32,000 nucleotides of DNA from Natranaerofaba carboxydovora (lineage in GTDB: Bacteria > Bacillota > Natranaerobiia > Natranaerobiales > Natranaerofabaceae): positions 3,127,833 through 3,159,832 of the forward strand of contig NZ_CP054394.1 in assembly GCF_022539405.1 (NCBI RefSeq). The letters are read 5' to 3'. The position numbers were made by a program, and so were the translations under genes. Position 1 is the first letter of the stretch. Every line of letters begins with the position of its first letter. The notes under the pieces were generated by a model. The model did no database searches. It was not told the origin of the DNA and saw only the letters and a program-made list of their open reading frames with translations. Positions 1,073 through 28,954 of this stretch are shown one piece after another.

Positions 1073-3532
1073 ATGTTTGCAAGATTTACCCAAAGAGCAC
1101 AGAAGGTGATGGCCCTATCACAGGAAGAAGCAAAAAGATTAAAACATAATTATGTTGGAACCGAACATTTGCTGTTAGGGTTAATTAGAGAAGGGGAAGG
1201 AGTAGCTGCCAGGGCTCTTAAGAATCTAAATGCAGATTTAGAAGCAGTTAGAGGTGAAGTAGAGAAGCTTGTGAGTCCAGGAGATGAAGCTCCTCTTGGT
1301 AATGTGGGATACACTCCTAGGGTTAAAACAGTAATAGAACTAGCTATGGATGAAGCTAGACAGATGGGACACAGTTATATCGGGACAGAACATTTGCTTT
1401 TAGGTCTAGTTAGAGAAGGAGAAGGAGTGGCCGCCAAAATATTAACTCAAATTGGAGTTAGCCTTGAGAATACAAGAGCTGAAGTGATGAAAATACTTGG
1501 AAGTAGTGAAAACCAGCCTAAAGATTTAAAAGGAAAACCAAATAAGTCTCAAACTTCAAGCAGTAAAACACCTGCTTTAGATTCCTTTGGTAGGGATTTG
1601 ACACAGATGGCTAAAGAAGAAAAGCTTGACCCTATAATTGGTAGGAGTAAAGAGATACAGAGGGTTATACAGGTACTAAGTAGAAGAACCAAAAATAACC
1701 CCTGCTTGATTGGTGAACCAGGGGTTGGGAAAACTGCCATAGCTGAAGGACTTGCACAAAAAGTAGTCGAAGGAAATGTACCCAAAATTCTTGAAGACAA
1801 GCGCGTAGTAACCCTTGAGTTATCTGCTGTTGTTGCCGGAACAAAATATAGAGGAGAGTTTGAAGAAAGGCTCAGGAGGTTAATTGACGAGTTGACCCAG
1901 GCAGGAGATGTTATCTTGTTTATTGATGAACTTCATACTGTAATTGGGGCCGGTGCGGCAGAAGGTGCAATAGATGCATCAAACATCCTAAAACCTGCCC
2001 TTGCTAGAGGTGAGCTTCAGTGTGTTGGAGCAACTACTCTAGATGAATATAGAAAGCATATAGAAAAAGACTCAGCTCTAGAGCGTCGTTTTCAGCCAAT
2101 TACGGTTGAGGAGCCAACTCAAGATGAGAGTGTAGAAATATTAAAAGGGCTTAGGGATAGATATGAAGCACATCACAGGGTGCAGATAAGCGATGAAGCA
2201 CTAGATGTTGCTGTCAAATTATCTGTTAGGTATATTACAGACAGATACTTGCCAGATAAAGCAATTGATTTGATTGATGAGGCAGCTGCAAGTGTAAGAC
2301 TAAAAACTAACACTACTCCTCCCGATCTAAAAAAGATGGAAGATAGGCTTGAGGAAATTCAAACGGAAAAAGAAGCTGCTATAAAAAGCCAGGATTTTGA
2401 ACAGGCGGCTGAGTTAAGAGATAAAGAGCAAAAAGCCAAAGAAAAGCTTGAAGAGTTAAAAACTGAATGGGAGCAAAAACAAATTTCTGATGAAACTAAA
2501 GTAACTGGTGAAGATATAGCAAAAATTGTATCCGATTGGACAGGAATTCCTGTTAAGAAGCTAGCACAAGAAGAGAGCGAGAGACTTTTGGGAATGGAAA
2601 AAATCTTGCACCAGCGGGTAGTAGGTCAGGAAGATGCTGTCAAAGCAGTATCAAATGCCATTAGAAGAGGAAGAGCTGGCCTAAAAGACCCCAAAAGACC
2701 AATAGGTTCTTTTATATTCCTTGGACCTACTGGAGTTGGAAAAACAGAACTAGCAAGAGCGCTTGCTGAAGCGTTGTTTGCAGATGAAGATGCAATAATT
2801 AGACTTGACATGTCAGAATATATGGAACGCCACACTACTTCTAGATTAGTTGGCTCGCCTCCAGGATATGTAGGACATGAAGAAGGTGGTCAGCTAACAG
2901 AGCAGGTTCGTCGTAGACCTTACTCAGTTATACTTTTTGATGAGATTGAAAAGGCGCATCCCGAAGTGTTTAACACTTTATTACAGGTTTTAGAGGATGG
3001 TCGTTTGACTGACTCCAAGGGAAGAACTGTTGATTTTAGAAACACCGTTATAATAATGACTTCAAATGTGGGTGCAAATACAATAAAGAGTAAGACAAAA
3101 GTAGGGTTTCAACCTGAAAGTCAAGAAGACTCTTATGAGGCGATGAAAGAAAGTATTATGGATGAATTGAAAAACACATTTAGGCCGGAATTTTTAAACC
3201 GTGTTGACGAAAATATTGTATTCCATGCTCTAGAAAAAGAGCATTTAAGAGAAATTGTAGAGTTAATGCTAAAAGAGATCGATGACAGAATGGAAGAATT
3301 TGACATAGAATTTGAAATTACAGAAGAAGCCAAAAAGTATCTAGCTGAGGAGGGCTATGACCCAACTTATGGAGCAAGACCTTTAAGAAGGGCAATACAA
3401 AAGAAAGTTGAAGATGTTTTAAGTGAGAAGATTCTAAAAGGTGACTTTAGTTATGGTGATCAAGTAATTGTTGATGTAGACGAAGATGGTAAAAAACTTA
3501 CATTTCAAAAGAAAGAAGAGGCTAAAAAATAA
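1073..3532 (+). CDS. clpC: ATP-dependent Clp protease ATP-binding subunit ClpC (class III stress AAA+ chaperone)
   Basis: Duplicated Clp N-repeat ([20 protein letters not shown] / [20 protein letters not shown]). Two Walker A motifs ([16 protein letters not shown]) with a UVR-like coiled coil between the AAA modules. RBS GAGAGGTG lies ~9 nt before ATG 1073, so the track's GTG 1064 is less likely. Confidence 0.95.
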
Positions 3533-3533
3533 A

Positions 3534-3580
3534 AAAAACAAATTTTAAGCGGGGTTTTTCCCCGCTTAAAATTTGTTTTT
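3534..3580 (+). terminator. Rho-independent terminator after clpC
   Basis: ~21-bp perfect stem (AAAACAAATTTTAAGCGGGG / CCCCGCTTAAAATTTGTTTT) around a TTTTT loop, ending in a T run, 2 nt after the clpC stop. Confidence 0.85.
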
Positions 3581-3643
3581 AAAATCTTTAGAAGGATTTT
3601 TAACATATTTTTAGAATAATATGAATAATGGTCTAATATTGAG

Positions 3644-4663
3644 GTGGAAACATTGACAAGGCTCGCACTAACTTTTCCTACCACTCATGATATGCTTCGA
3701 GCTGAAACAATTCTAAGTAGTTTCATGAACTGTGAGAACATCCCTGCCCCAAAAGACTCAAAAAGTAAATGTACTACAGCAATTATGATAGAAGAAAATG
3801 ATTTGGAAAAGGCTAAACGATTAATGGAAGTAGAAAAAATAAACTGGGATGAAGTGATAGAGTACTCGATGTCTAAATCTACTAATAGCCAGGAGACACC
3901 AAGTCTTTATGAGAAATTTCTAAAACCATCTCCTGACAATATTTCTGAGAATCAAATCGATCAGAATTATTTATTGAATTTGTTTTATAAAGCGGGAATG
4001 TTGGATAAAAAGGATCTTGATACTTTGTTCTCGCTAGAAAAAAAACAGCTAATTTTTTTTGAAGAACTATTTCTAGACAATCTTAATAACTCGGTATTGG
4101 GCCACAGCTGGATCGTTCCTGTGGGCTATTGCAAGAACCATTGTGAAGGATGTTTTTTGCCTGGACTTAGTGAAGTTAATTTTGAAACACTAAAATGGGT
4201 TGTTAGCCAAATTAAAGAAGGTTTTTCTTACCCTGTTGCTTTTGTTTATGGGGAGCAATTTGATGAAGGTATTTTAAATTATCTGTTGAGTGAATTGAAA
4301 GAATTTAACGACAAACCTTCTTTACTATATTTGGGAAGTGATCCTTTGGGTTTGCCTTTAGACTTACTTTCTCAAGGGACTTCTTTGTCTTGTCATGACA
4401 ATTTATTAAAAATGAAAGTAGATGAAATTATAAAAGAAGTACTCTTTTTGAAAGAGAACACTGACCATACTTTGGCTAGTCAAACCTTTGTGCCAATACA
4501 TGTGAATTATAATCAATTAAATGAACAAGATAAAATAAAACTTAAAAAAACTATAATCGCCCTGAGGCTTGCTCTTGGGGATGGCCCTTTGATAGGTAGC
4601 CCCGAAATAGATGAAATTGATATAGGAGCCATGGGTGAAAACATTAGGTTTAAATGGATTTAA
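3644..4663 (+). CDS. Uncharacterised fusion protein: DUF3343-like N-terminal domain plus a CX3CX2C (radical-SAM-like, BioB/HydE-reminiscent) domain
   Basis: 339-codon ORF. The likelier start is TTG 3653, 5 nt after RBS GAGGTGG. The N-terminal ~65 aa (LALTFPTTHDMLRAETIL...IPAPKD...KCTTAIMIEENDLEKAKRLME) fit the small DUF3343 (putative Se/S-carrier-like) pattern. Cys163-x3-Cys167-x2-Cys170 (GYCKNHCEGCF, nt 4130-4153) is followed by VAFVYGEQF. Same strand as, and 17 nt upstream of, the next ORF, at the head of the acs cluster. Function not established. Confidence 0.5.
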   Translation: METLTRLALTFPTTHDMLRAETILSSFMNCENIPAPKDSKSKCTTAIMIEENDLEKAKRLMEVEKINWDEVIEYSMSKSTNSQETPSLYEKFLKPSPDNISENQIDQNYLLNLFYKAGMLDKKDLDTLFSLEKKQLIFFEELFLDNLNNSVLGHSWIVPVGYCKNHCEGCFLPGLSEVNFETLKWVVSQIKEGFSYPVAFVYGEQFDEGILNYLLSELKEFNDKPSLLYLGSDPLGLPLDLLSQGTSLSCHDNLLKMKVDEIIKEVLFLKENTDHTLASQTFVPIHVNYNQLNEQDKIKLKKTIIALRLALGDGPLIGSPEIDEIDIGAMGENIRFKWI

Positions 4664-4679
4664 AATCGGAGGGTTCTAA

Positions 4680-5207
4680 TTGTTCTTAGACAAAATTGAA
4701 ATAACACAAATTATGCCGTGTATAGCCGATGACGAGAGAATTAGATTTTTTGCAAGGCCTTCAAATGATTTGACAGATCTGCTTCCCTATCTAAATGCCG
4801 TAATGAAAACTGCAACCTATAATAAAAGAGCCCCAAACCTTACCTATACTAAAGAAGAACGACTAATTACTGTATATCCAAATAAAATTGCGGCTGCAAA
4901 AATTTATAATAAAGAAGATGCTATAGATGTAACCCAGGAACTAAAAAAGTTAATAAATGAAGTTTATGAAAAAAAAGATGAAATTGAGCCTCTTTATGAG
5001 CAAAGAGTTAGAATACAGGCTATTGATTTATACAAATGGCTTCCTGGTACTAATTGCAAAGAATGCGGACATCCCACATGCTTAGCTTTTGCAGTTGCTA
5101 TATTACAAAACAAAGCTCGTCTTTCTAGCTGTGCTCCCTTAAAAGAAACAGAAGAGGGGTATAAGGAAGTTGAAGAAATACTAACTAATATTGGTTATGA
5201 GACATAA
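4680..5207 (+). CDS. Uncharacterised protein with a C-terminal AcsC-type Cys4 Fe-S domain (PF04060-like 'putative Fe-S cluster' domain)
   Basis: TTG start 6 nt after RBS GGAGGG. Residues 112-153 (IQAIDLYKWLPGTNCKECGHPTCLAFAVAILQNKARLSSCAPL) align by hand to the AcsC N-terminus in this window (21/43 identical). Cys spacing C-x2-C-x4-C-x16-C is identical in both. The N-terminal ~110 aa match nothing I recognise. Confidence 0.6.
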   Translation: MFLDKIEITQIMPCIADDERIRFFARPSNDLTDLLPYLNAVMKTATYNKRAPNLTYTKEERLITVYPNKIAAAKIYNKEDAIDVTQELKKLINEVYEKKDEIEPLYEQRVRIQAIDLYKWLPGTNCKECGHPTCLAFAVAILQNKARLSSCAPLKETEEGYKEVEEILTNIGYET

Positions 5208-5306
5208 CATTTGGGTCAAATTACCGAATTGTGAAAAAAAGAATTTAAAAAAAACGAAAGGATTTATTTAAAAAATGTCGAACATGAGGAAGGGGTCAAT
5301 TACAGT

Positions 5307-5335
5307 TTGACAGTAATTTAAGAATAATTTATAGA
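5307..5335 (+). promoter_or_regulatory. Candidate sigma-A promoter for cooC-acs genes
   Basis: TTGACA (5307-5312), 17-nt spacer, TATAGA (5330-5335), ~65 nt upstream of cooC. The -35 is embedded in an imperfect 10-bp inverted repeat (TCAATTACAG 5296-5305 / CAGTAATTTA 5311-5320). Confidence 0.35.
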
Positions 5336-5402
5336 AGCCGTTATTATTTTAGACAGAAGTTACTAAACAATGTAAAAATTTCGAATATTTGAGGTGAAAT
5401 GA

Positions 5403-6155
5403 ATGAAGATATCTGTCAGTGGTAAAGGGGGAGTTGGAAAGACCACTATATCCGCTGGACTTAGCAAATTGTTTAGCTCTAAGGGGAGCAGGGTATATGC
5501 AATAGATTGTGACCCGGACGCTAGCTTGGGTCTTGCCTTAGGATTTGATGAAGATAGCTTAGACAGTGTTCACCCACTGGTAGAATTAAAAGAAGAGATA
5601 GACGAGAAGATGGGAGGAGGGGATTTCTATCCTTTAAATCCAAAGGTAGATGATGTGTTAGATAGGTATTCTTTGCAAAAAGGGAATATTAATTTTCTTA
5701 GAATGGGCTCAGTAAAGCAAGGAGGATCTGCCTGTTATTGTAGAGAGAATAGCTTCATGAATGCGCTATTGAATGCTCTGCTACTAGACAAAGATGACAT
5801 TGTAATACTTGACATGGCGGCCGGAATTGAGCATTTGACCAGGGGTACGGCTTCTGGTGTTGACCTTTTATTAATTGTTACAGAGCCTACCAGAACTAGC
5901 ATCAAAACAAGTCAGGTTGTAAAAAACCTTGGTAAAGAGCTGGGCATAAGAAATATTAAGACCATAATTAACAAGCTGCGAACTTCAAAGGAGAGAGAAC
6001 TAATCGAGAAAGCTTTAGATCCCAGAGATATAGCAGGTATTATTGAATATGATGAAGAAATACTTGAGGAGACTTTGTCTGAAGATCAACAAGAAGCAGT
6101 GATTGTTCCCGGATTAGAAGAAATATTCAAGACTATTGAAAAAGAGGTGAACTGA
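5403..6155 (+). CDS. cooC: CODH/ACS nickel-insertion accessory ATPase CooC (AcsF-type)
   Basis: MinD/ParA-type deviant Walker A at the N-terminus (SGKGGVGKTT). CxC motif (ACYCREN) typical of CooC. RBS GAGGTG 6 nt upstream. Immediately precedes acsA. Confidence 0.88.
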   Translation: MKISVSGKGGVGKTTISAGLSKLFSSKGSRVYAIDCDPDASLGLALGFDEDSLDSVHPLVELKEEIDEKMGGGDFYPLNPKVDDVLDRYSLQKGNINFLRMGSVKQGGSACYCRENSFMNALLNALLLDKDDIVILDMAAGIEHLTRGTASGVDLLLIVTEPTRTSIKTSQVVKNLGKELGIRNIKTIINKLRTSKERELIEKALDPRDIAGIIEYDEEILEETLSEDQQEAVIVPGLEEIFKTIEKEVN

Positions 6156-6211
6156 TCCCTCTCCTTTGTGTTGATATTTAAAAGAAACAATTTTTTAAAG
6201 GAGGTAAAATA

Positions 6212-8230
6212 ATGCCGAGATTTAGGGACACAAGTATTAACGCACAACCTAGTAATGCTCCAAAAGAAAGGTTTTTGGATCCTAAGAATAGGGTAAGAAC
6301 TGATGCCGATGGCGAAAAGCAATTGCTTGAAAAAGCAGAGAAAGACAACGTAATAACAGCTTTTGACAGAGCTGTTGCTCAGCATCCTCAGTGCCAGTTT
6401 GGTTATCAGGGGATTTGCTGTAGATTTTGTATCCAGGGACCATGCCGTATCAAAGCCATGGAGGGACCTGGAAGCAGGGGTATTTGTGGAGCTACTGCTT
6501 ACAATATAGTAGCTAGATTCGTTGGTGTAGCTGTTGCTATTGGTGCTTCTTCTCGCTCAGAGCACGGTAAGCATATAGCCCACACATTGCTAGAAGTATC
6601 AGAAGGAAATTATGAAGACTACCAGATTACTGATCCTGACAAGCTAAAGAGAGTAGCCAAAAGATTAGGCGTTGAAACAGAAGGGAAAGACGATCTAAAG
6701 ATCGCTTATGAACTTGCTAATGTAGCCATGGAAGACTTTGGTAACGTAGGAACTAAAGAATCGAACTGGTTAAACTCAATGCTTCCTGAGCCAAGAAAAC
6801 AAAAGTTCAAAGAAACGACAATTATGCCTAAAGGTATTGGCAATACAATTACTGACCAGCTAGCCGCGATTCACATGGGTATGGATGCTGACCCTGTAAA
6901 CAATATTTTTAGTGCGCTTAGAACATCGCTAAGTGACCTTAATGGAATGACAATTGCAAGTGAGTTCTCTGATATTTTATTTGGAACACCAACTCCTTCA
7001 GTTACAGATGCAAACTTTGGTGTTATTGATGAGAAGCAGGTAAACATTGCTCTACACGGTCACAATCCACTATTAAGTGAAATGGTTGTTAAGGCAGCAA
7101 GAGAAATGGAAGATGAAGCAAAGAGCGCTGGTGCAGAAGGTATTAACTTGTTTGGTATTTGCTGTACAGGTAATGAAGTTCTTATGAGACAGCAGATCCC
7201 ACTTGCTACAAACTTTGGTACTCAAGAGCTAGTTATAACTACAGGTGCAGTAGATGCTATGGCAGTAGACGTTCAGTGTATTAACCCAGGTGTTTCAGAA
7301 GCAGCCCAGTGCTACAGCACTAAGCTTATAACTACTGATAAGTTAGCAAAAATCCCTGGTTCATATCATGTAGACTTCAAACAAGATAAAGCTATGGAGT
7401 GTGCTAAGGAAATAATCAAGGTTGCTATTGATGCTTATAAAGACAGAAAAGGAAATGTTGAGATTCCTGAGTATAAGAATAAGCTAGTTGCTGGATTTTC
7501 CGTTGAAAGTATAGAACAAATATTGAGCTCAGTAAACTCAGATAGCCCATGGAAAGTAATAGTTGATGCAATCGAAGCAGGTGAAATAAGCGGAATTGGA
7601 TTCTTAATCGGTTGTAACAACGCTAAGGGCTGGCAGGACCAAAACCATATTGAAATAGCTAAAGAAATGGCTAAAAATAACGTATTAATGGTTTCGACCG
7701 GTTGTGCTGCTGGATCATATGGTAAATATGGATTCTTAAATTCAGATGCAATTGAAAAATATGCAGGAGATGGTCTGAAGAAGTTCTTAGGTCGTCTAAA
7801 CGATAGCGCTGACCTAAATGAAGATTTACCACTGATCTTCCACATGGGATCCTGTGTAGATAACTCAAGAATCGTGGATTTAATCATAAGAGTAGCCAAC
7901 GAAATGGACGTAGACATTCCAAAGGTACCGGTAGTAGGTTCTGCTCCAGAAGCTATGAGTCCAAAAGCTGTTGCTATCGGTAGTTACTTCCTATCCTTAG
8001 GTGTGCCAGTTCATGTTGGAGCTATGCCACCACTTGAAGGAAGTACTATGGTATACAGTATTGCGACTCAAATTGCACACGATGTTTTTGGTGGATACTT
8101 CATTCTTGAAACAGATGCCGATATGGGTGCTAAGAAAATCATGCAGGCTCTAGACTATAGAACCTGGAAGCTAGATGTTCACAAGAAAACTGCCGAGAAG
8201 TATGGAACAAGTCTAGCAAGAGAGTATTAA
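6212..8230 (+). CDS. acsA: Carbon monoxide dehydrogenase, CODH subunit of CODH/ACS (AcsA, CooS family)
   Basis: The N-terminus (MPRFRD...VITAFDRAVAQHPQCQFGYQGICCRFCIQGPCRI) closely matches my recollection of Moorella AcsA, including the B/D-cluster Cys motifs. 672 aa. Strong RBS AAGGAGG. Confidence 0.95.
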   Translation: MPRFRDTSINAQPSNAPKERFLDPKNRVRTDADGEKQLLEKAEKDNVITAFDRAVAQHPQCQFGYQGICCRFCIQGPCRIKAMEGPGSRGICGATAYNIVARFVGVAVAIGASSRSEHGKHIAHTLLEVSEGNYEDYQITDPDKLKRVAKRLGVETEGKDDLKIAYELANVAMEDFGNVGTKESNWLNSMLPEPRKQKFKETTIMPKGIGNTITDQLAAIHMGMDADPVNNIFSALRTSLSDLNGMTIASEFSDILFGTPTPSVTDANFGVIDEKQVNIALHGHNPLLSEMVVKAAREMEDEAKSAGAEGINLFGICCTGNEVLMRQQIPLATNFGTQELVITTGAVDAMAVDVQCINPGVSEAAQCYSTKLITTDKLAKIPGSYHVDFKQDKAMECAKEIIKVAIDAYKDRKGNVEIPEYKNKLVAGFSVESIEQILSSVNSDSPWKVIVDAIEAGEISGIGFLIGCNNAKGWQDQNHIEIAKEMAKNNVLMVSTGCAAGSYGKYGFLNSDAIEKYAGDGLKKFLGRLNDSADLNEDLPLIFHMGSCVDNSRIVDLIIRVANEMDVDIPKVPVVGSAPEAMSPKAVAIGSYFLSLGVPVHVGAMPPLEGSTMVYSIATQIAHDVFGGYFILETDADMGAKKIMQALDYRTWKLDVHKKTAEKYGTSLAREY

Positions 8231-8296: not shown

Positions 8297-10480
8297 ATGT
8301 CAATTGAAGAGATTTATGAAGGTGCTTTGGAGGAGTTAGAACAGCCACCTAAACCGCTTTTTAAGAAAGCTATAGATGGTGCGATTGTTGCTGTCAGTTA
8401 TGCAGAGATTCTCTTAAACCAAGCGATTAGAGAGTATGGTGAAGACCAAGAGGTAAAGTATCCAGATACTGCTTATTATTTACCTGTAATGACAGCACTT
8501 AGTGGAGAAAAAGTAGAAACTCTTGGGGAGCTACCACCTATATTAAATAGATTACGCCAACAGGTGAGAGAAGAATACACTTTTGAAAATGCAAGATTAG
8601 CCGGGGAAGCTACTCTGTATGCGGCAGAAATTATTGAGGCTCTTAGATATGTAAGAGAAGAGGAACCCCATGTTGAACCATGGTCAGGATTCTTAAGAGA
8701 CCCGATCTTAAGAAAGTATGGAATACAGCTAGTTGACTGGTCTATACCAGGACAGACTGTTATTCTTGGAAGAGCTAGATCTTCTGAAGAAGCTGCAGAG
8801 CTTGTTAGAGATCTACAGAGTAAAGGCATGATGCTCTTTATCGCAGATGAAGTTATTGAGCAGCTGCTAGAGCAGGATATGAAGCTAGGGGTAGACTATA
8901 TTGCCTTCCCTGTAGGTAACTTTACTCAGGTGATTCATGCTGTAAACTTTGCTCTTAGAGCAGGATTAGCTTTTGGTGGTATGCCACCAGGAGAAAGAGA
9001 TCAAGCAAGAGATTATCAGTATAGAAGAGTTCGCTGTTTTGTACTTCATCTTGGTGAGATTGATGACGTAAAAGCTGCAGCTCACTTTGGAGCTATTTTC
9101 CTAGGATTTGCAGTAATAACCGACCAAGAATTACAAGAAGGAATGAGAATCCCAGACTGGTATGAATCAGAACAGGATTACAAGGAAATGGTCAAACTAG
9201 GTATGGAGCTTAGAGGAATAAAAATCGAGACTTCAGAGATTGACGCGCCAATCACAGTTGGACCTGCTTTTGAGGGTGAGACAATCAGAAGAGGAGATAT
9301 GCACGCTGAATTTGGCGGCAAGTCATCTACTGCTTTTGAAGTTGTCCGCATGGTTGAAGATAGAGACGAAATCGAAGACGGCAAGGTGATCCACGAAGGT
9401 CCAGACTTAGACGAAATTGAAGAAGGCGGAACACTTCCTCTAGGAATTATTGTAGACGTTTATGGAAGAAAGATGCAGCGTGACTTTGAAGGTGTTCTAG
9501 AGCGTAGAGTACACGGATTTACTAACTATGGTGAAGGATTGTGGCACGTTGCACAGCGTGACTTCGTTTGGATCAGAGTTAGTAAAGACGCTTACGAAAA
9601 AGGCTTTAGAATGAAGCATCTTGGTGAAATATTAAAAACTAAATTAAAAGAAGACTTCTCACAGGTTATTGACAGAATTCAGGTAACTATTATAACTGAT
9701 GAGAACAAAGTTAACGAAGAAATAGAAGGCGCAAGAGAAAGATATAGAGAAAGAGACGAAAAGATTGCCCAGCTAAATGATGAATCAGTAGATACTTTCT
9801 ATTCATGTCTGCTGTGTCAGTCCTTTGCTCCAAATCACGTATGTGTTATTACTCCTGATAGGGTTGGACTTTGTGGAGCGATCAGTTGGCTAGACGCTAA
9901 AGCGTCTAATGAAATGGATCCTCATGGCCCAAATCAGCCTATACCAAAAGATGGAACTATAGATGAAGAAAAAGGAATGTGGGAAGCTGTAAACGAAGCC
10001 GTATACAAAGACTCAAACCGTAACCTTGAAGAAGTTAACCTTTACACTTTAATGGAAAAACCAATGACTTCCTGCGGTTGCTTTGAGGCCATTATAGCAA
10101 TGGTGCCAGAAGCAAATGGAGTTATGATTACCACAAGAGACCACGGTGGAATGACTCCGTGCGGTATGAACTTCTCAACTCTAGCAGGATCAGTTGGTGG
10201 AGGAGTTCAGACACCTGGATTTATGGGTGTAGGTAGAACCTATATGTTAAGTCCAAAGTTTATTAAAGCTGACGGTGGACTTGCAAGGGTTATCTGGATG
10301 CCAAAGAGCTTAAAAGAATTCCTAGGGGATGACTTAAGGAAACGTGCCGAAGAAGACGGTCTAGGAGAAGACTTTGTTGACAAAATTGCCGATGAAGAAG
10401 TAGGAGAAACTGCTGAAGAGATCTTGTCATTCTTACAAGAAAAAGATCATCCAGCGCTTTCAATGGATCCAATGATGTAA
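8297..10480 (+). CDS. acsB: Acetyl-CoA synthase (AcsB, A-cluster subunit)
   Basis: Near-colinear resemblance to Moorella AcsB, e.g. YAEILLNQAIR, NFENARLAGEAT, GPAFEGE. A-cluster ligand motifs CLLCQSFAPNHVCVITPDRVGLCGA and SCGCFE are present. 727 aa. Confidence 0.96.
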   Translation: MSIEEIYEGALEELEQPPKPLFKKAIDGAIVAVSYAEILLNQAIREYGEDQEVKYPDTAYYLPVMTALSGEKVETLGELPPILNRLRQQVREEYTFENARLAGEATLYAAEIIEALRYVREEEPHVEPWSGFLRDPILRKYGIQLVDWSIPGQTVILGRARSSEEAAELVRDLQSKGMMLFIADEVIEQLLEQDMKLGVDYIAFPVGNFTQVIHAVNFALRAGLAFGGMPPGERDQARDYQYRRVRCFVLHLGEIDDVKAAAHFGAIFLGFAVITDQELQEGMRIPDWYESEQDYKEMVKLGMELRGIKIETSEIDAPITVGPAFEGETIRRGDMHAEFGGKSSTAFEVVRMVEDRDEIEDGKVIHEGPDLDEIEEGGTLPLGIIVDVYGRKMQRDFEGVLERRVHGFTNYGEGLWHVAQRDFVWIRVSKDAYEKGFRMKHLGEILKTKLKEDFSQVIDRIQVTIITDENKVNEEIEGARERYRERDEKIAQLNDESVDTFYSCLLCQSFAPNHVCVITPDRVGLCGAISWLDAKASNEMDPHGPNQPIPKDGTIDEEKGMWEAVNEAVYKDSNRNLEEVNLYTLMEKPMTSCGCFEAIIAMVPEANGVMITTRDHGGMTPCGMNFSTLAGSVGGGVQTPGFMGVGRTYMLSPKFIKADGGLARVIWMPKSLKEFLGDDLRKRAEEDGLGEDFVDKIADEEVGETAEEILSFLQEKDHPALSMDPMM

Positions 10481-10595: not shown

Positions 10596-11930
10596 GTGGC
10601 ACTTACAGGATTAGAAATTTATAAGCATTTACCAAAAAAGAATTGTGGAGAATGTGGGCCACCGACATGTCTTGCATTTGCTATGAACCTTGCTGCTGGA
10701 AAAGCGCAGCTAGATTCTTGTCCATACGTTAGTGATGAGGCAAAAGAGGCATTAGATTCAGCTGCAGCACCGCCAATCAAACTAGTAGAAATCGGTAAAG
10801 ACGATAAGAAAGTTGAAATTGGTGATGAAACAGAACTGTTTAGACACGAAAAGAAATTCTTTCACCCGACTTTAGTTGCATTTAAGATAAGTGACAATGA
10901 TAATGTTTCTGATGAAATAAAGAAAATTAATGAGAATTCAACCTATGAGAGGGTTGGACTTGAATACAAGGTTGAACTTGTTGCAATAGAATCAGAGTCA
11001 GGAGATCCTGATAAGTTTAAGCAAGCTGTAGAGACCGTTAAGAACGAAGGAAACCATGCAATGATTCTTATGAGCGAAGACCCTGAGGTGATCAAAGCAG
11101 GGCTTGAAGTAGCAAAAGACGAAAATCCAATGGTATATCCAGCAACCGAAGAAAATTGCGAAAAAATGGTCGAGCTAGTAAAAGATGGTGATTTGCCGCT
11201 AGGTGTTAAAGGAAATAACTTGGAGCAAACTAAAGATCTTGTAGAAAAGATTCACGAGGCTGGTCATAAGAACTTGGTTCTAGACAGCGGTGCAAGGGAG
11301 ACATCTCAAGTAGTTGCAGACATGACCCAGATTAGACGTCAGGCTGTTAAGAAAAAATTCAGGCCATTTGGATATCCGGCTATAGCATTCACTACAAAAG
11401 AAGATCCAATGAAGGAGATAGTCCAGGCTACTTCTTACGTATCCAAGTACGCAGGTATAGTGGTACTACAGTCAGCTCGTGAAAAGGCGGAAGTACTTCC
11501 ACTATTATCTTGGAGACAGAATCTATACACTGATCCACAGAAGCCAATACAGGTTGAGCAGAAGGTTGGCAAGGTTGGCGAGCCAGACGAAAATTCACCT
11601 GTATACATTACAGTTAACTTCTCGCTAGCTTATTATCTAGTTGAAGGTGAGGTTGAAGAGAGTAGAATACCATCGTATATTTTGCCAGTAGATACTGATG
11701 GAACATCCGTCCTGACTGCTTGGGCTGCAGGTAAGTTCTCACCGGAAGCAATCGCCCAAGCCATTAAAGATAGTGGCTTAGAAGATATGGTCTCGCATAG
11801 ACAATTGGTTATACCAGGACACGTTGCGGTATTAAGTGGTAAGCTAGGAGAAGAGTCTGGATGGGAAGTTGTAGTAGGTCCAAGAGAAGCATCAGAAATA
11901 CCTGCATTTGCTAAAGAGAAATTCAAATAA
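10596..11930 (+). CDS. acsC: Corrinoid iron-sulfur protein large subunit (AcsC, CFeSP gamma)
   Basis: GTG start after RBS AAAGGGGA. N-terminal [4Fe-4S] domain LPKKNCGECGPPTCLAFAMNLAAGKAQLDSC. 444 aa. Position between acsB and acsD. Confidence 0.92.
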   Translation: MALTGLEIYKHLPKKNCGECGPPTCLAFAMNLAAGKAQLDSCPYVSDEAKEALDSAAAPPIKLVEIGKDDKKVEIGDETELFRHEKKFFHPTLVAFKISDNDNVSDEIKKINENSTYERVGLEYKVELVAIESESGDPDKFKQAVETVKNEGNHAMILMSEDPEVIKAGLEVAKDENPMVYPATEENCEKMVELVKDGDLPLGVKGNNLEQTKDLVEKIHEAGHKNLVLDSGARETSQVVADMTQIRRQAVKKKFRPFGYPAIAFTTKEDPMKEIVQATSYVSKYAGIVVLQSAREKAEVLPLLSWRQNLYTDPQKPIQVEQKVGKVGEPDENSPVYITVNFSLAYYLVEGEVEESRIPSYILPVDTDGTSVLTAWAAGKFSPEAIAQAIKDSGLEDMVSHRQLVIPGHVAVLSGKLGEESGWEVVVGPREASEIPAFAKEKFK

Positions 11931-11989: not shown

Positions 11990-12964
11990 ATGTCTTTTTC
12001 ACTAGAGAAAGAACGTTATAGAAGTAAAGTTAGAGAAGTGGTCCTTGGTGCAACTAAAGAGGACGGAGGCACTAGAGGTCACACAATAACAGTAGGAGGG
12101 GAGTCAACCCTTCCCTATCAACACTATGAAGGTGACATGCCTAATACTCCTGTAGTAGGTATGGAAGTTTGGGATATTGTTCCAGAAGGCTGGGAAGATG
12201 AGCTAAAAGAACAATTTAGTGACGTCCTTGATAACCCTGCCGAATGGGCCAAAAAGAATGTAAATGAATATAATGCTGAATTTATATGTTTAAGATTACA
12301 GGGAGCACATCCTGATGAAGGGGATAAATCACCTGAAGAGTGTGTAAAAGTAGTAAAAGAGGTGCTAGAAGCAGTAGATGTACCAATTATGGTATATGGT
12401 TGTAGAAAAGAAGAAAAGGATAATGAAGTAATACCGAAGGTGGCTGAAGAGGCTTCAGGAGAAAACCTGCTTTTAGGTGTTACTGAGGAAGAAAACTATA
12501 AGTCAATTACAGCTGCTTGTATGGTTCACGGTCATACAGTTATTGCTAAATCACCGATCGACATAAATATTTGTAAGCAGTTAAATATTCTAATAAATGA
12601 AATGGGCTTAGATACTGGCAAGATAATTATTGACCCAACTATTGCAGCGCTTGGATACGGTATTGAGTACGGATATTCAATTATGGAAAGAGCAAGAATG
12701 GGAGCCCTTCAAGGGGACAATATGCTTGCTATGCCAATGATCGGTATGATCGGCGAAGAAGCATGGAGAGCTAAAGAGACGAAAGCACCTGAATCAGACT
12801 TCCCTGGCTGGGGAGAGCAAAAGACCAGAAGTATCCTTTGGGAGGCTGTAACTGCATCATCCTTACTACAAGGCGGCCTTGATATTCTAGTTATGCGTCA
12901 TCCAAAGGCAGTTGAAATGGTAAAGGAGAATATCGAAGAGTTAATGCAAGATAACAGTTATTAA
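11990..12964 (+). CDS. acsD: Corrinoid iron-sulfur protein small subunit (AcsD, CFeSP delta)
   Basis: 324-aa TIM-barrel-type protein directly after acsC. RBS AAAGGAGAG. Size and position are canonical for AcsD. Confidence 0.88.
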
Positions 12965-12975
12965 TTTAAATATAA

Positions 12976-13785
<810 letters not shown>

Positions 13786-13866
13786 ATTGCAGTAAAAGTA
13801 GAGTTGCAGGGCTAGTTTGTGCAGAAAATTATTCAAAGAAAAGATTCCGTCTATTATAGTAGAAAA

Positions 13867-13914
13867 AGAGGAGACGCTCGGTGGACAGCTCGCTCGGGAG
13901 GGTCTCCTCTTTCT
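13867..13914 (+). terminator. Rho-independent terminator after acsE
   Basis: GC-rich stem AGAGGAGAC (13867-13875) / GTCTCCTCT (13902-13910), with additional inner pairs, followed by TTCT. Confidence 0.7.
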
Positions 13915-14146
13915 ACCATTTAGACCACATGACTTATAAGTGAAAAGAATACTAAAGTGAAAAAAATTACAGGACTTGTTGGTGACTACAATGTAGAATT
14001 AGTGTCGTAGTGTTTTTTCTACTATGATGACATGGAAGTAATAAGAACACCTAGAAAATATATATCATGAATGTAGTGAACTGGGTGTTATTTTTATTCG
14101 TCATGATAAGATACACTTTTATAAAGACCCTCTAAATACCTCAATA

Positions 14147-14175
14147 TTGAAAGCTTATCCTTAGAGTGCGATATT
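14147..14175 (+). promoter_or_regulatory. Candidate sigma-A promoter for metV-metF (would give a ~240-nt leader)
   Basis: TTGAAA (14147-14152), 17-nt spacer, GATATT (14170-14175). No experimental support; other AT-rich hexamer pairs exist in this region. Confidence 0.25.
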
Positions 14176-14420
14176 TTGATTTAAGTGATAAGGTTGTTCC
14201 ATTTTAAGAAGTTAAAAAAGTTGCATATACTACCATCTATTACCGGTTGGCACAAATAAGCCTGGGGTGTATGCTAATGGTGCATGCAAAAAACTAGATT
14301 TTTTATGGACTAACTCACGTATAGAATTGGATTCGTAAAATTCATCGCCTTGCATGTGAATGCTGTGTTATGTGTGTAGCACCAGAGGAATTTAGGTCCA
14401 ATAGAAGGGAAGGTGTCGAA

Positions 14421-27794: not shown

Positions 27795-28652
27795 TTAACC
27801 AGAAGCTTTATCAGTCAAATCATTTGCAAGTTCAGTTAAAGTATCTGAAACGTTGACAATTTCCTGAACTGATGCAAGAACCTGCTCAGTTGCAGCAGCC
27901 TGGCTTTCAGATACATCTCCGGTTTCTTGAATGCCGTTATTCATAGTTTCTATGTAAGAAACAATTTGTGTTATTATGTCATTAATCTCCTGTATAGAAG
28001 TACTGCTGTTGTCAGCTAGCTTTTTTACTTCAGTAGCTACAACGCCAAATCCACGGCCAGCTTCCCCAACTCTTGCAGCTTCTATTGCAGCATTTAGACC
28101 GATAATTCTAGTTTGATTTGCAATTTTTTGTATTAATTCCAATATTTCATTACTTTTGCTTGCAGCTTCCTGGGCGTTTGTAGCAGTTTTACTTAAGTCC
28201 TGTCCCAGATTTGCAAGATTCTCTGCACCTGAAGCAACTTCTTGCATGGTAGAATTAATTTGCTGGATAGTGGCACTTAAAGTCTCAGCATTTTCTGCTA
28301 AAGTTTTAGCCTGTTTGTTAAGGTCTTCTATTAGTTTTTCCCTTTCTTCGACGACCATTACCAAAAGCTTTGCACCAGTTGCGTCCATAATGGCTACATT
28401 CTCGGGGCAATTATCATTTAAAAGCTGCTTTACTTTATCTACTCCTGTTACTTCAATTATTAGATCCATATTATCGGTTAGCATGGCTGTAAAGTCAGTA
28501 TTTGTGGGTACATCTAATTCCTTAGCGCGCTTTATCCCTTCGGCTTCCTCATCAATATCACATATCCATTTTATTGTAACATCCTCCATTGAATTAAACA
28601 GATCTAAGAGGGCTCTACCCCCGCGTCCTCCTCCAATTATGCCAATACGCAT
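27795..28652 (-). CDS. Soluble chimeric protein: N-terminal Rossmann-like (GxGxxG) domain fused to a short methyl-accepting chemotaxis protein (MCP) signalling domain
   Basis: N-terminus MRIGIIGGGRGGRALL, beta-alpha-beta with acidic DID at ~residue 32. Residues ~105-285 form a coiled-coil hairpin carrying the highly conserved MCP tip IANQTRIIGLNAAIEAARVGEAGRGFGVVATEVKKLA. No hydrophobic transmembrane segment or HAMP region seen. Strong RBS AAGGAGGA. Confidence 0.8.
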   Translation of the reverse strand: MRIGIIGGGRGGRALLDLFNSMEDVTIKWICDIDEEAEGIKRAKELDVPTNTDFTAMLTDNMDLIIEVTGVDKVKQLLNDNCPENVAIMDATGAKLLVMVVEEREKLIEDLNKQAKTLAENAETLSATIQQINSTMQEVASGAENLANLGQDLSKTATNAQEAASKSNEILELIQKIANQTRIIGLNAAIEAARVGEAGRGFGVVATEVKKLADNSSTSIQEINDIITQIVSYIETMNNGIQETGDVSESQAAATEQVLASVQEIVNVSDTLTELANDLTDKASG

Positions 28653-28954
28653 GAAAATCCTCCTTTAATATAAATACAGATTGTATGTACAAAGAGCTAA
28701 TACTATATATTATAAAATATTTTGTTTATGCTTTAGTTCTATAAGTTCTGGTTTTACTTTTACCTGCTTTTTTAATTTTATGGAAGTTATTCTGCAAAAA
28801 ATATAATAATCCTGCATTTAAATGCAAAATTATCTTATATTACTGATTTGAAAAAGATGTACTAAAAACTAATCAAATATTAAAATTTTTATGTAATGGC
28901 AAAACATATTAAAGTAATATAAAGTGAGCTGGTTTAAAAAATGTTTGAAAAAGA

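Follow-up and report, generated by a model that had tools for sequence, protein, structure and literature searches.

The large subunit of the corrinoid iron–sulfur protein (CFeSP; AcsC/CfsA; Protein Data Bank (PDB) 2YCL, 4C1N, 4DJD and 9FZY) and RnfB/RsxB (PDB 8AHX, 9ERI and 7ZC6) both carry a small [4Fe–4S] module of the Pfam family PF04060, which in RnfB is the entry point for low-potential electrons. We analysed a 32,000-nucleotide (nt) stretch of the Natranaerofaba carboxydovora genome (hereafter, the window) in which the same module occurs in ORF175, an open reading frame (ORF) of 175 amino acids (aa; nt 4680–5207, + strand, TTG start) upstream of cooC and the carbon monoxide dehydrogenase/acetyl-CoA synthase (CODH/ACS) genes. 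ORF175 is 100% identical to the N. carboxydovora '(Fe-S)-binding protein'. As in CFeSP, its module has the same ligand spacing and is attached through a linker; unlike CFeSP, ORF175 has no corrinoid-binding TIM barrel, has an undescribed N-terminal domain with a conserved cysteine, and belongs to a family that is not linked to acs genes. RnfB is membrane-anchored and has extra ferredoxin-type clusters, whereas ORF175 is soluble, with a single predicted cluster and an unrelated partner domain. We conclude that ORF175, no derivative of the neighbouring AcsC, represents a large and uncharacterised protein family that occurs in anaerobes, and propose, with moderate confidence, that it is a [4Fe–4S]/Cys14 thiol–persulfide redox module working with the product of the upstream gene, ORF339.

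Other described systems bear on this proposal. DUF3343 is a proposed sulfur/selenium-trafficking chaperone with a conserved cysteine, linked to selenocysteine (Sec) lyase and YedF (PMC5322559). The ORF175 module is fused in some relatives to DUF3343 and to NifS, partners of the kind reported for DUF3343 (PMC5322559), and ORF339 has the conserved cysteine; unlike the described network, ORF175 itself lacks DUF3343, there are no selenium genes nearby and most of the fused DUF3343-like domains have no cysteine. Ferredoxin:thioredoxin reductase and other [4Fe–4S] disulfide reductases offer a functional analogy only: they too combine a [4Fe–4S] cluster with a reactive cysteine, and a small thioredoxin is the most frequent family neighbour listed below, but there is no sequence or fold kinship, and ORF175, in which any such activity is hypothetical, has only one conserved non-ligand cysteine. 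RACo (orf7), which reductively reactivates the corrinoid, a role proposed earlier for ORF175, is much larger and combines a [2Fe–2S] cluster with an ASKHA ATPase domain. Pfam and NCBIfam models detected nothing RACo-like in ORF175, and although its complex with CFeSP (4C1N) appeared among the fold matches, it did so through the CFeSP chain only.

ORF175 and its relationship to AcsC

The features on which the comparison rests are as follows.

4680–5003, + strand: N-terminal domain of ORF175, residues 1–108; alpha/beta, in the order beta2-alpha-beta4-alpha; undescribed
5013–5138, + strand: PF04060 [4Fe–4S] domain of ORF175, residues 112–153, ligands C126/C129/C134/C151, followed by a C-terminal helix to 5207
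10602–10727, + strand: N-terminal [4Fe–4S] domain of AcsC, with which ORF175 was compared (Pfam, NCBIfam, BLASTP)

The first-pass annotation, made by hand from the sequence, had expected PF04060 in ORF175, and a Pfam scan finds it on residues 121–153 (E = 1.1e-13; score, 51.1 bits; cut-off, 23), as it does on residues 12–44 of AcsC (E = 1.1e-12). BLASTP aligned residues 112–151 with residues 3–42 of AcsC (nt 10596–11930) with 21/40 identities (E = 2e-13); the earlier count of 21 identities out of 43 between residues 112–153 and 3–44 was right in its identities and wrong in its length, which is 42 positions. The C-x2-C-x4-C-x16-C spacing (C126/C129/C134/C151 in ORF175 and C17/C20/C25/C42 in AcsC) and the common PTCLAFA core were confirmed on the sequences, and the four ligand cysteines are invariant across 51 homologues. 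An AlphaFold model built on the alignment of these homologues reached a predicted local distance difference test (pLDDT) score of 92.3, and its C-terminal domain superimposes on the [4Fe–4S] domain of CFeSP with a root-mean-square deviation of 1.3 Å (2ycl_A and 9fzy_F) to 1.9 Å (4c1n_G) over 53–56 columns (~55 residues) at 30–44% identity. A profile search of PDB sequences returned CFeSP large subunits and RnfB only, through the PF04060 domain alone. The similarity to AcsC is thus real and far above chance, and the C-terminal domain is of the CFeSP/RnfB type, with cluster binding predicted from its sequence and model. The DUF3786 partner domain that had been anticipated was not detected in ORF175 by Pfam at E ≤ 0.1.

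This similarity does not make ORF175 a recent paralogue of AcsC. Over 42 positions, ORF175 has 21 identities to the AcsC of its own genome, and 48 family members from unrelated organisms have 16–21 (mean, 18.1); against an unrelated AcsC, family members reach up to 22/42. Because other members are equally similar, the resemblance is a general property of PF04060 and no sign of an in-genome duplication; a recent duplication from AcsC was rejected, given that the identity of ORF175 to its own AcsC lies within the range of the family.

The N-terminal domain was modelled with a pLDDT of ~95. Its Pro13-Cys14 pair is near-invariant in 51 sequences (Cys14 codon, 4719–4721, at the end of strand 1), PYL of the Pro36-Tyr37-Leu38(-Asn) motif is invariant in the same set, and the cysteine is invariant in 19 longer, fused proteins too. 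The first-pass annotation could name nothing for the N-terminal ~110 aa, and this holds: the first ~108 aa match no Pfam or NCBIfam model and no PDB sequence, and Foldseek gave only TBP-like (TATA-binding protein)/helix-grip resemblances that were non-significant (E > 0.1). Full-length homologues of 170–200 aa align over 98–100% of ORF175 at 37–53% identity (>100 proteins); 277 full-length proteins and 325 genome loci were found in all, and the N-domain profile alone, which matches P0001 (identical to ORF175) with E = 4e-42, gathers at least 754 clusters (representatives at 50% identity). The best N-domain matches, P0123 and P0125, lie on contigs of <1.5 kb and their context is uninformative. 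The family holds a central place in the ars-type operons of anaerobes, among them Thermodesulfobacteriota, Omnitrophota, Planctomycetota, Dehalococcoidia and Bipolaricaulota.

Across the family, the N-domain and PF04060 form one conserved, collinear unit. Orthologues of ORF175 are 74–80% identical at the amino acid level, with a non-synonymous divergence (dN) of 0.14–0.18, a constraint comparable to that on CooC; the ratio to synonymous divergence (dN/dS) is ~0.05–0.06, from the two lineage pairs with computable dS. ORF175 is therefore a real, strongly constrained two-domain protein, in which a linker joins the Cys14-bearing domain to PF04060. What is new is the combination of a known Fe–S module with an undescribed domain in a widespread, uncharacterised family: we found no paper describing the N-domain and [4Fe–4S] family, by PF04060 or by the name given to it at JGI, and the published description of N. 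carboxydovora does not discuss ORF175 or ORF339.

Genomic context and sulfur-carrier links of the family

Family context was assessed in a census of 87 non-redundant loci (the best 80 of the 325 genome loci and several metagenome contigs), in which tblastn searches with reference proteins identified the neighbours. One or more ars-type neighbours were present at 73/87 loci, and the individual neighbours were as follows.

Small thioredoxin PF13192 (Trx3): 60/87 loci
ArsP_1 permease: 49/87 loci
Acr3: 46/87 loci
ArsR (HTH_5, as a separate gene): 44/87 loci
Thioredoxin (Trx): 29/87 loci
DsbD/CcdA: 28/87 loci
DGC protein: 19/87 loci
Low-molecular-weight phosphatase ArsC: 18/87 loci
Any acs gene: 2/87 loci (L004 and L009)

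Both acs-bearing loci belong to ~80% identical relatives with the same gene order as the window. The claim that ORF175 is a free-standing AcsC Fe–S domain serving CFeSP does not survive this comparison: the homologues are distributed independently of acsC and acsD, an outcome that the first-pass annotation had itself named as refuting it, with acs genes far rarer at their loci than ars-type genes. Family paralogues occur in tandem or nearby, in 2–3 copies, at 18/87 loci, and are of two types, 'PC[IL]AD' and 'PEC'.

The family is also tied to sulfur-carrier proteins by gene fusion. Among the 150 best matches to the N-domain, ~19 are longer forms of 250–285 aa with an extra N-terminal domain. 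PF11823 (DUF3343/Se_S_carrier) scores on 3/19 of these (best, P0159; E = 6e-15), and the N-terminal extension of all 19, aligned as a profile by hhalign with the DUF3343 domain of ORF339, gave 94% probability (E = 1.2e-7). A hidden Markov model (HMM) of the extension matches 14/105 family genes in the loci, and in a neighbour-joining tree the DUF3343-fused genes form the sister clade of the ORF175 clade. In P0257, a NifS-type cysteine desulfurase is fused to the module inside an Acr3–ArsP–Trx3–DGC operon; in L072, such a desulfurase overlaps and adjoins the family gene, and NifS-type matches occur in 6/87 census loci. A SufBD-like gene adjoins the family gene in L012, and a MoaD/ThiS-like gene does so in L024, L017 and L033; maturase-like radical-SAM/SPASM genes, at ~9 loci, are a further recurrent partner. 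L090 (8001–10458; also L091 and L092) encodes a 582-aa NifS fusion followed by an unfused family paralogue, both inside an Acr3–ArsP–Trx3–DGC operon.

In the window, the DUF3343 domain is encoded separately, by the gene immediately upstream.

3644–4663, + strand: ORF339, likely partner of ORF175; DUF3343 N-terminus and a lineage-specific region of ~260 aa
4668–4673, + strand: Shine–Dalgarno sequence of ORF175, GGAGGG, 6 nt before the TTG and 4 nt past the ORF339 stop (read from the sequence)

PF11823 matches residues 9–72 of ORF339 (nt 3668–3859; E = 2e-12; score, 46.8 bits; cut-off, 25), and Cys43 within this domain is invariant among homologues. These homologues occur in the same lineage only, at 38–47% identity (neighbouring genes, ~80–90%), and ORF339 evolves much faster than its neighbours (in the comparison of lineages that gave the dN values above, 38–43% identity and dN/dS of 0.24–0.35). 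The link between ORF175 and this upstream CX3CX2C gene, already noted in the first pass, turns out to be real and stronger than claimed, because proteins of the sister clade join the DUF3343 domain found in ORF339 and the module in a single chain. By a Rosetta-stone argument, fusion there and adjacency here indicate that ORF339 and ORF175 work together, and ORF339 is likely the partner of ORF175. Translational coupling of the two genes, by comparison, was overstated: they are co-operonic, but a 16-nt gap separates the ORF339 stop (4661–4663) from the ORF175 start, which has its own Shine–Dalgarno sequence. Orthologues of ORF175 begin with a non-ATG codon in all four lineages in which this arrangement was followed (window, 4680, TTG; L004, 8001, TTG; L095, 5918, GTG; L097, 5885, TTG), which may reflect deliberately low or coupled translation.

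The position upstream of cooC and alternative roles

Four lineages, represented by the window, L004/L009, L095 and L097, share the order mcsB–clpC–ORF339–ORF175–cooC–acsA although synonymous sites are saturated between them; within its own lineage, the linkage of ORF175 to the acs operon is conserved. The elements of this region are as follows.

3534–3580: terminator hairpin after clpC, parting the clpC operon from ORF339; 20-bp palindromic stem with 6–7 G–C pairs (terminator scan)
3593–3617 (block 3590–3617), + strand: SigH-type promoter-like motif AGGATTTTTAACATATTTTTAGAAT, 27 nt upstream of ORF339
5256–5296, + strand: conserved non-coding block upstream of cooC, invariant in four lineages, holding the SigH-type motif AGGATTTATTTAAAAAATGTCGAAC (5259–5283)
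5403–6155, + strand: cooC, first gene of the CODH/ACS block (Pfam, NCBIfam)
6212–8230: acsA, CODH/ACS block
8297–10480: acsB, CODH/ACS block
10596–11930: acsC, CODH/ACS block
11990–12964: acsD, CODH/ACS block
12988–13785: acsE, CODH/ACS block

The position of the hairpin after clpC is conserved in L004, L095 and L097, and AGGATTT and TTAGAAT of the motif upstream of ORF339 are invariant in the four lineages. The pattern AGGATTT-N14-GAAY (equivalent to AGGA-N17-GAAY) has only two matches in the 32-kb window, upstream of ORF339 and of cooC, against 0.04 expected, a statistic that is partly circular because the pattern was defined after both sites had been seen. SigH motifs have a −35 element AGGA and a −10 element GAAT with a spacer of 17–18 nt, and are reported to precede Wood–Ljungdahl clusters in Sporomusa, Moorella, Carboxydothermus and Acetohalobium (PMC12456013). 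The SigH-type architecture at both units suggests that cooC–acs has its own predicted promoter, and that ORF339–ORF175 may share its regulation; as such promoters are numerous, accounting for 16% of Sporomusa transcription start sites (PMC12456013), the shared motif is only a lead. The ~200-nt spacer between ORF175 and cooC is maintained and contains no terminator. No RNA structure was predicted for the block at 5256–5296, no Rfam model reached its gathering score anywhere in the window, and Rfam gave no meaningful match at 3400–6300. A conserved small ORF in the spacer was considered and rejected, because in L004 a stop codon cuts it short. Elsewhere in the window, a third SigH-like match, AGGAWWW-N14-GAAT (28789–28813, − strand), lies upstream of a chemoreceptor-like gene (27795–28652, − strand), and the 584-nt gap between acsE and a metV-like gene (13786–14369) holds no ORF of ≥60 aa and no Rfam match.

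This arrangement bears on a reading in which ORF339 and ORF175 were recruited locally to help CooC to assemble or repair the Ni–Fe–S clusters of CODH/ACS, DUF3343 bringing sulfur and the [4Fe–4S] domain acting as the reductant for nickel insertion. The pair directly precedes cooC, shares its strand and is not parted from it by a terminator, the synteny has been retained despite saturation of synonymous sites, the conserved AGGA-N17-GAAY motif of SigH type is present at both units, as is reported for the Wood–Ljungdahl clusters of related acetogens (PMC12456013), and family neighbours elsewhere include SufBD, NifS, maturase-like radical-SAM proteins and a Ni/Co importer. We nevertheless consider this role unlikely: the arrangement is found in one lineage only, ORF175 and cooC are set apart by the ~200-nt spacer with its separate predicted promoter, the composition of ORF339 and ORF175 (GC, 0.335–0.34) is unlike that of the cooC–acs block (0.40–0.41), fast evolution of ORF339 (38–47% identity) is not what would be expected of a core maturation factor, and SigH-type motifs are as common as noted above.

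The role first suggested for ORF175, that of an electron-transfer adaptor or activase component of CFeSP that docks at or near the AcsC Fe–S domain and aids Co(II)-to-Co(I) reduction, draws on the shared domain type, on the position upstream of cooC–acs in four lineages and on the lack of a RACo/orf7-like gene among the acs-block genes listed for the window. It also draws on a few loci elsewhere. At three of them (L039, 9974–12971; L048, 9977–12961; L044, 2087–5177; from candidate division LCP-89 and one other metagenome-assembled genome (MAG)), the family gene heads a cbiM–PDGLE(cbiN-like)–cbiQ operon, followed by an ABC ATPase where checked, that is, a Co/Ni energy-coupling factor (ECF) importer. 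At two others (L024, 2419–4724; L017, 2531–8443; both Thermodesulfobacteriota/Syntrophobacterales MAGs with the MoaD/ThiS-like gene beside the family gene), a bona fide hgcA, a mercury-methylation gene (score, 435 bits; cut-off, 275), lies within a few kilobases. HgcA is a corrinoid protein without an Fe–S domain of its own. With the acs lineage included, cobalt, corrinoid or nickel neighbours amount to 7/87 loci, a thin thread that keeps the adaptor idea alive at low probability. Its difficulties are the acs genes at only 2/87 homologue loci, a similarity to the AcsC of its own genome that is not elevated, an Fe–S domain already present in AcsC, and a conserved partner that is ORF339/DUF3343 and not AcsC or AcsD. 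Ars-type genes, moreover, are also present at the hgcA loci (at least at L017), and a preprint proposes that hgcAB is linked to arsenic resistance (bioRxiv 10.1101/2022.10.17.512643).

The ~260-aa region of ORF339 raises the further idea that ORF175 is a dedicated low-potential donor for a radical-SAM or radical-SAM-like enzyme, here the C-terminal domain of ORF339. This region holds a cysteine triad, C163-x3-C167-x2-C170 (nt 4130–4153), which is loosely conserved (CX3CX2C in 2/3 aligned homologues and CX3CX3C in the third). A PDB search gave a weak hint of the radical-SAM protein PylB over the same motif region (E = 0.82), and radical-SAM/SPASM genes of maturase-like type adjoin family genes at ~9/87 loci. 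We regard such a donor role as improbable, given that no Radical_SAM model matches ORF339, that its BLASTP comparison with the neighbouring radical-SAM proteins was not significant, that its AlphaFold model, from a two-sequence alignment, was too poor to use (pLDDT, 42) and that most family loci have no radical-SAM neighbour. The C-terminal domain has no homologue at other family loci by jackhmmer and phmmer, and no Pfam or NCBIfam match even at E of 10 or 1. A 'YGEQ' stretch and the triad of ORF339 loosely resemble radical-SAM motifs. Radical-SAM/SPASM neighbours (L055, 10634–11908; L017, 3720–4988; L018, 13674–14984; L056, 1040–2302 and from ~3648) have an AbrB-like N-terminus, and their nearest models, below cut-off, are 'tungsten cofactor oxidoreductase radical SAM maturase' and 'putative metalloenzyme maturase'; the database entry P0280 reads through into a radical-SAM/SPASM gene.

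Finally, a redox- or metal-sensing regulator, as implied by the JGI label 'ArsR family metal-binding transcriptional regulator' that is widely given to homologues, and as might suit the family gene heading three cbiMNQO operons or the TBP-like fold matches of the N-domain, is highly improbable, given that Pfam and NCBIfam detect no helix-turn-helix (HTH_5/HTH_20) or other DNA-binding domain in ORF175, ArsR is encoded by a separate gene at 44/87 loci, the TBP-like matches are non-significant and the fusion partners of the module are enzymes and carriers, with no DNA-binding domain among them.

A proposed thiol–persulfide redox module and its meaning

We return to the reading that we favour, the [4Fe–4S]/Cys14 thiol–persulfide redox module. 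The [4Fe–4S] domain of ORF175 would take low-potential electrons, for example from ferredoxin, and pass them to thiol/persulfide or thiol–metalloid chemistry at Cys14 and a carrier cysteine; the carrier would be Cys43 of ORF339 here and Trx3 or NifS elsewhere, and the outcome would be regenerated thiols or released sulfide. Several points weigh against this proposal. The chemistry at Cys14 is something that we purely infer; the carrier cysteine is absent from most DUF3343-like fusions, which weakens a strict persulfide-relay model; and the census covers the 80 best genome matches and a few metagenome contigs. Cobalt/corrinoid genes neighbour the family at some loci (cbiMNQO at three, hgcA at two), and in N. 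carboxydovora there is no ars context, the gene lying directly upstream of cooC–acs in four diverged lineages with a matching promoter motif.

Because the family occurs mostly in arsenic- or metal-resistance operons and is tied to sulfur-carrier proteins, ORF175 probably does not serve the acetyl-CoA pathway as a dedicated helper. Its position before cooC–acs is lineage-specific; it may reflect co-regulation and does not define the function of the family. A lineage-specific link of ORF175 to the acs operon, and with it a local acs-related role, is possible, since the position has been kept in four diverged lineages together with the matching promoter motif. We put forward a more specific, two-part proposal as rather doubtful: the family would provide anaerobic ars/metal operons with a previously undescribed thiol/persulfide redox component, linked to ferredoxin and working with Trx3, DUF3343 and NifS (for example, feeding electrons to thioredoxin-coupled arsenate reduction, or mobilising sulfide for the handling of metals and metalloids), and the split pair of ORF339 and ORF175 would have been co-opted in the Natranaerofaba lineage, under a SigH-type promoter, for maturation or repair of the Ni–Fe–S/corrinoid enzymes of CODH/ACS.

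For acetogenesis, the practical consequence is that its AcsC-like domain should not earn ORF175 an annotation as a CFeSP or acs accessory factor, which would spread a wrong function. For metal and metalloid biology, the analysis brings to light a family of at least 754 clusters whose N-domain has no Pfam or NCBIfam model. The ORF339–ORF175 pair provides a concrete, testable partner for DUF3343, and there may be an unrecognised Fe–S/sulfur-relay step in anaerobic arsenic or soft-metal handling.

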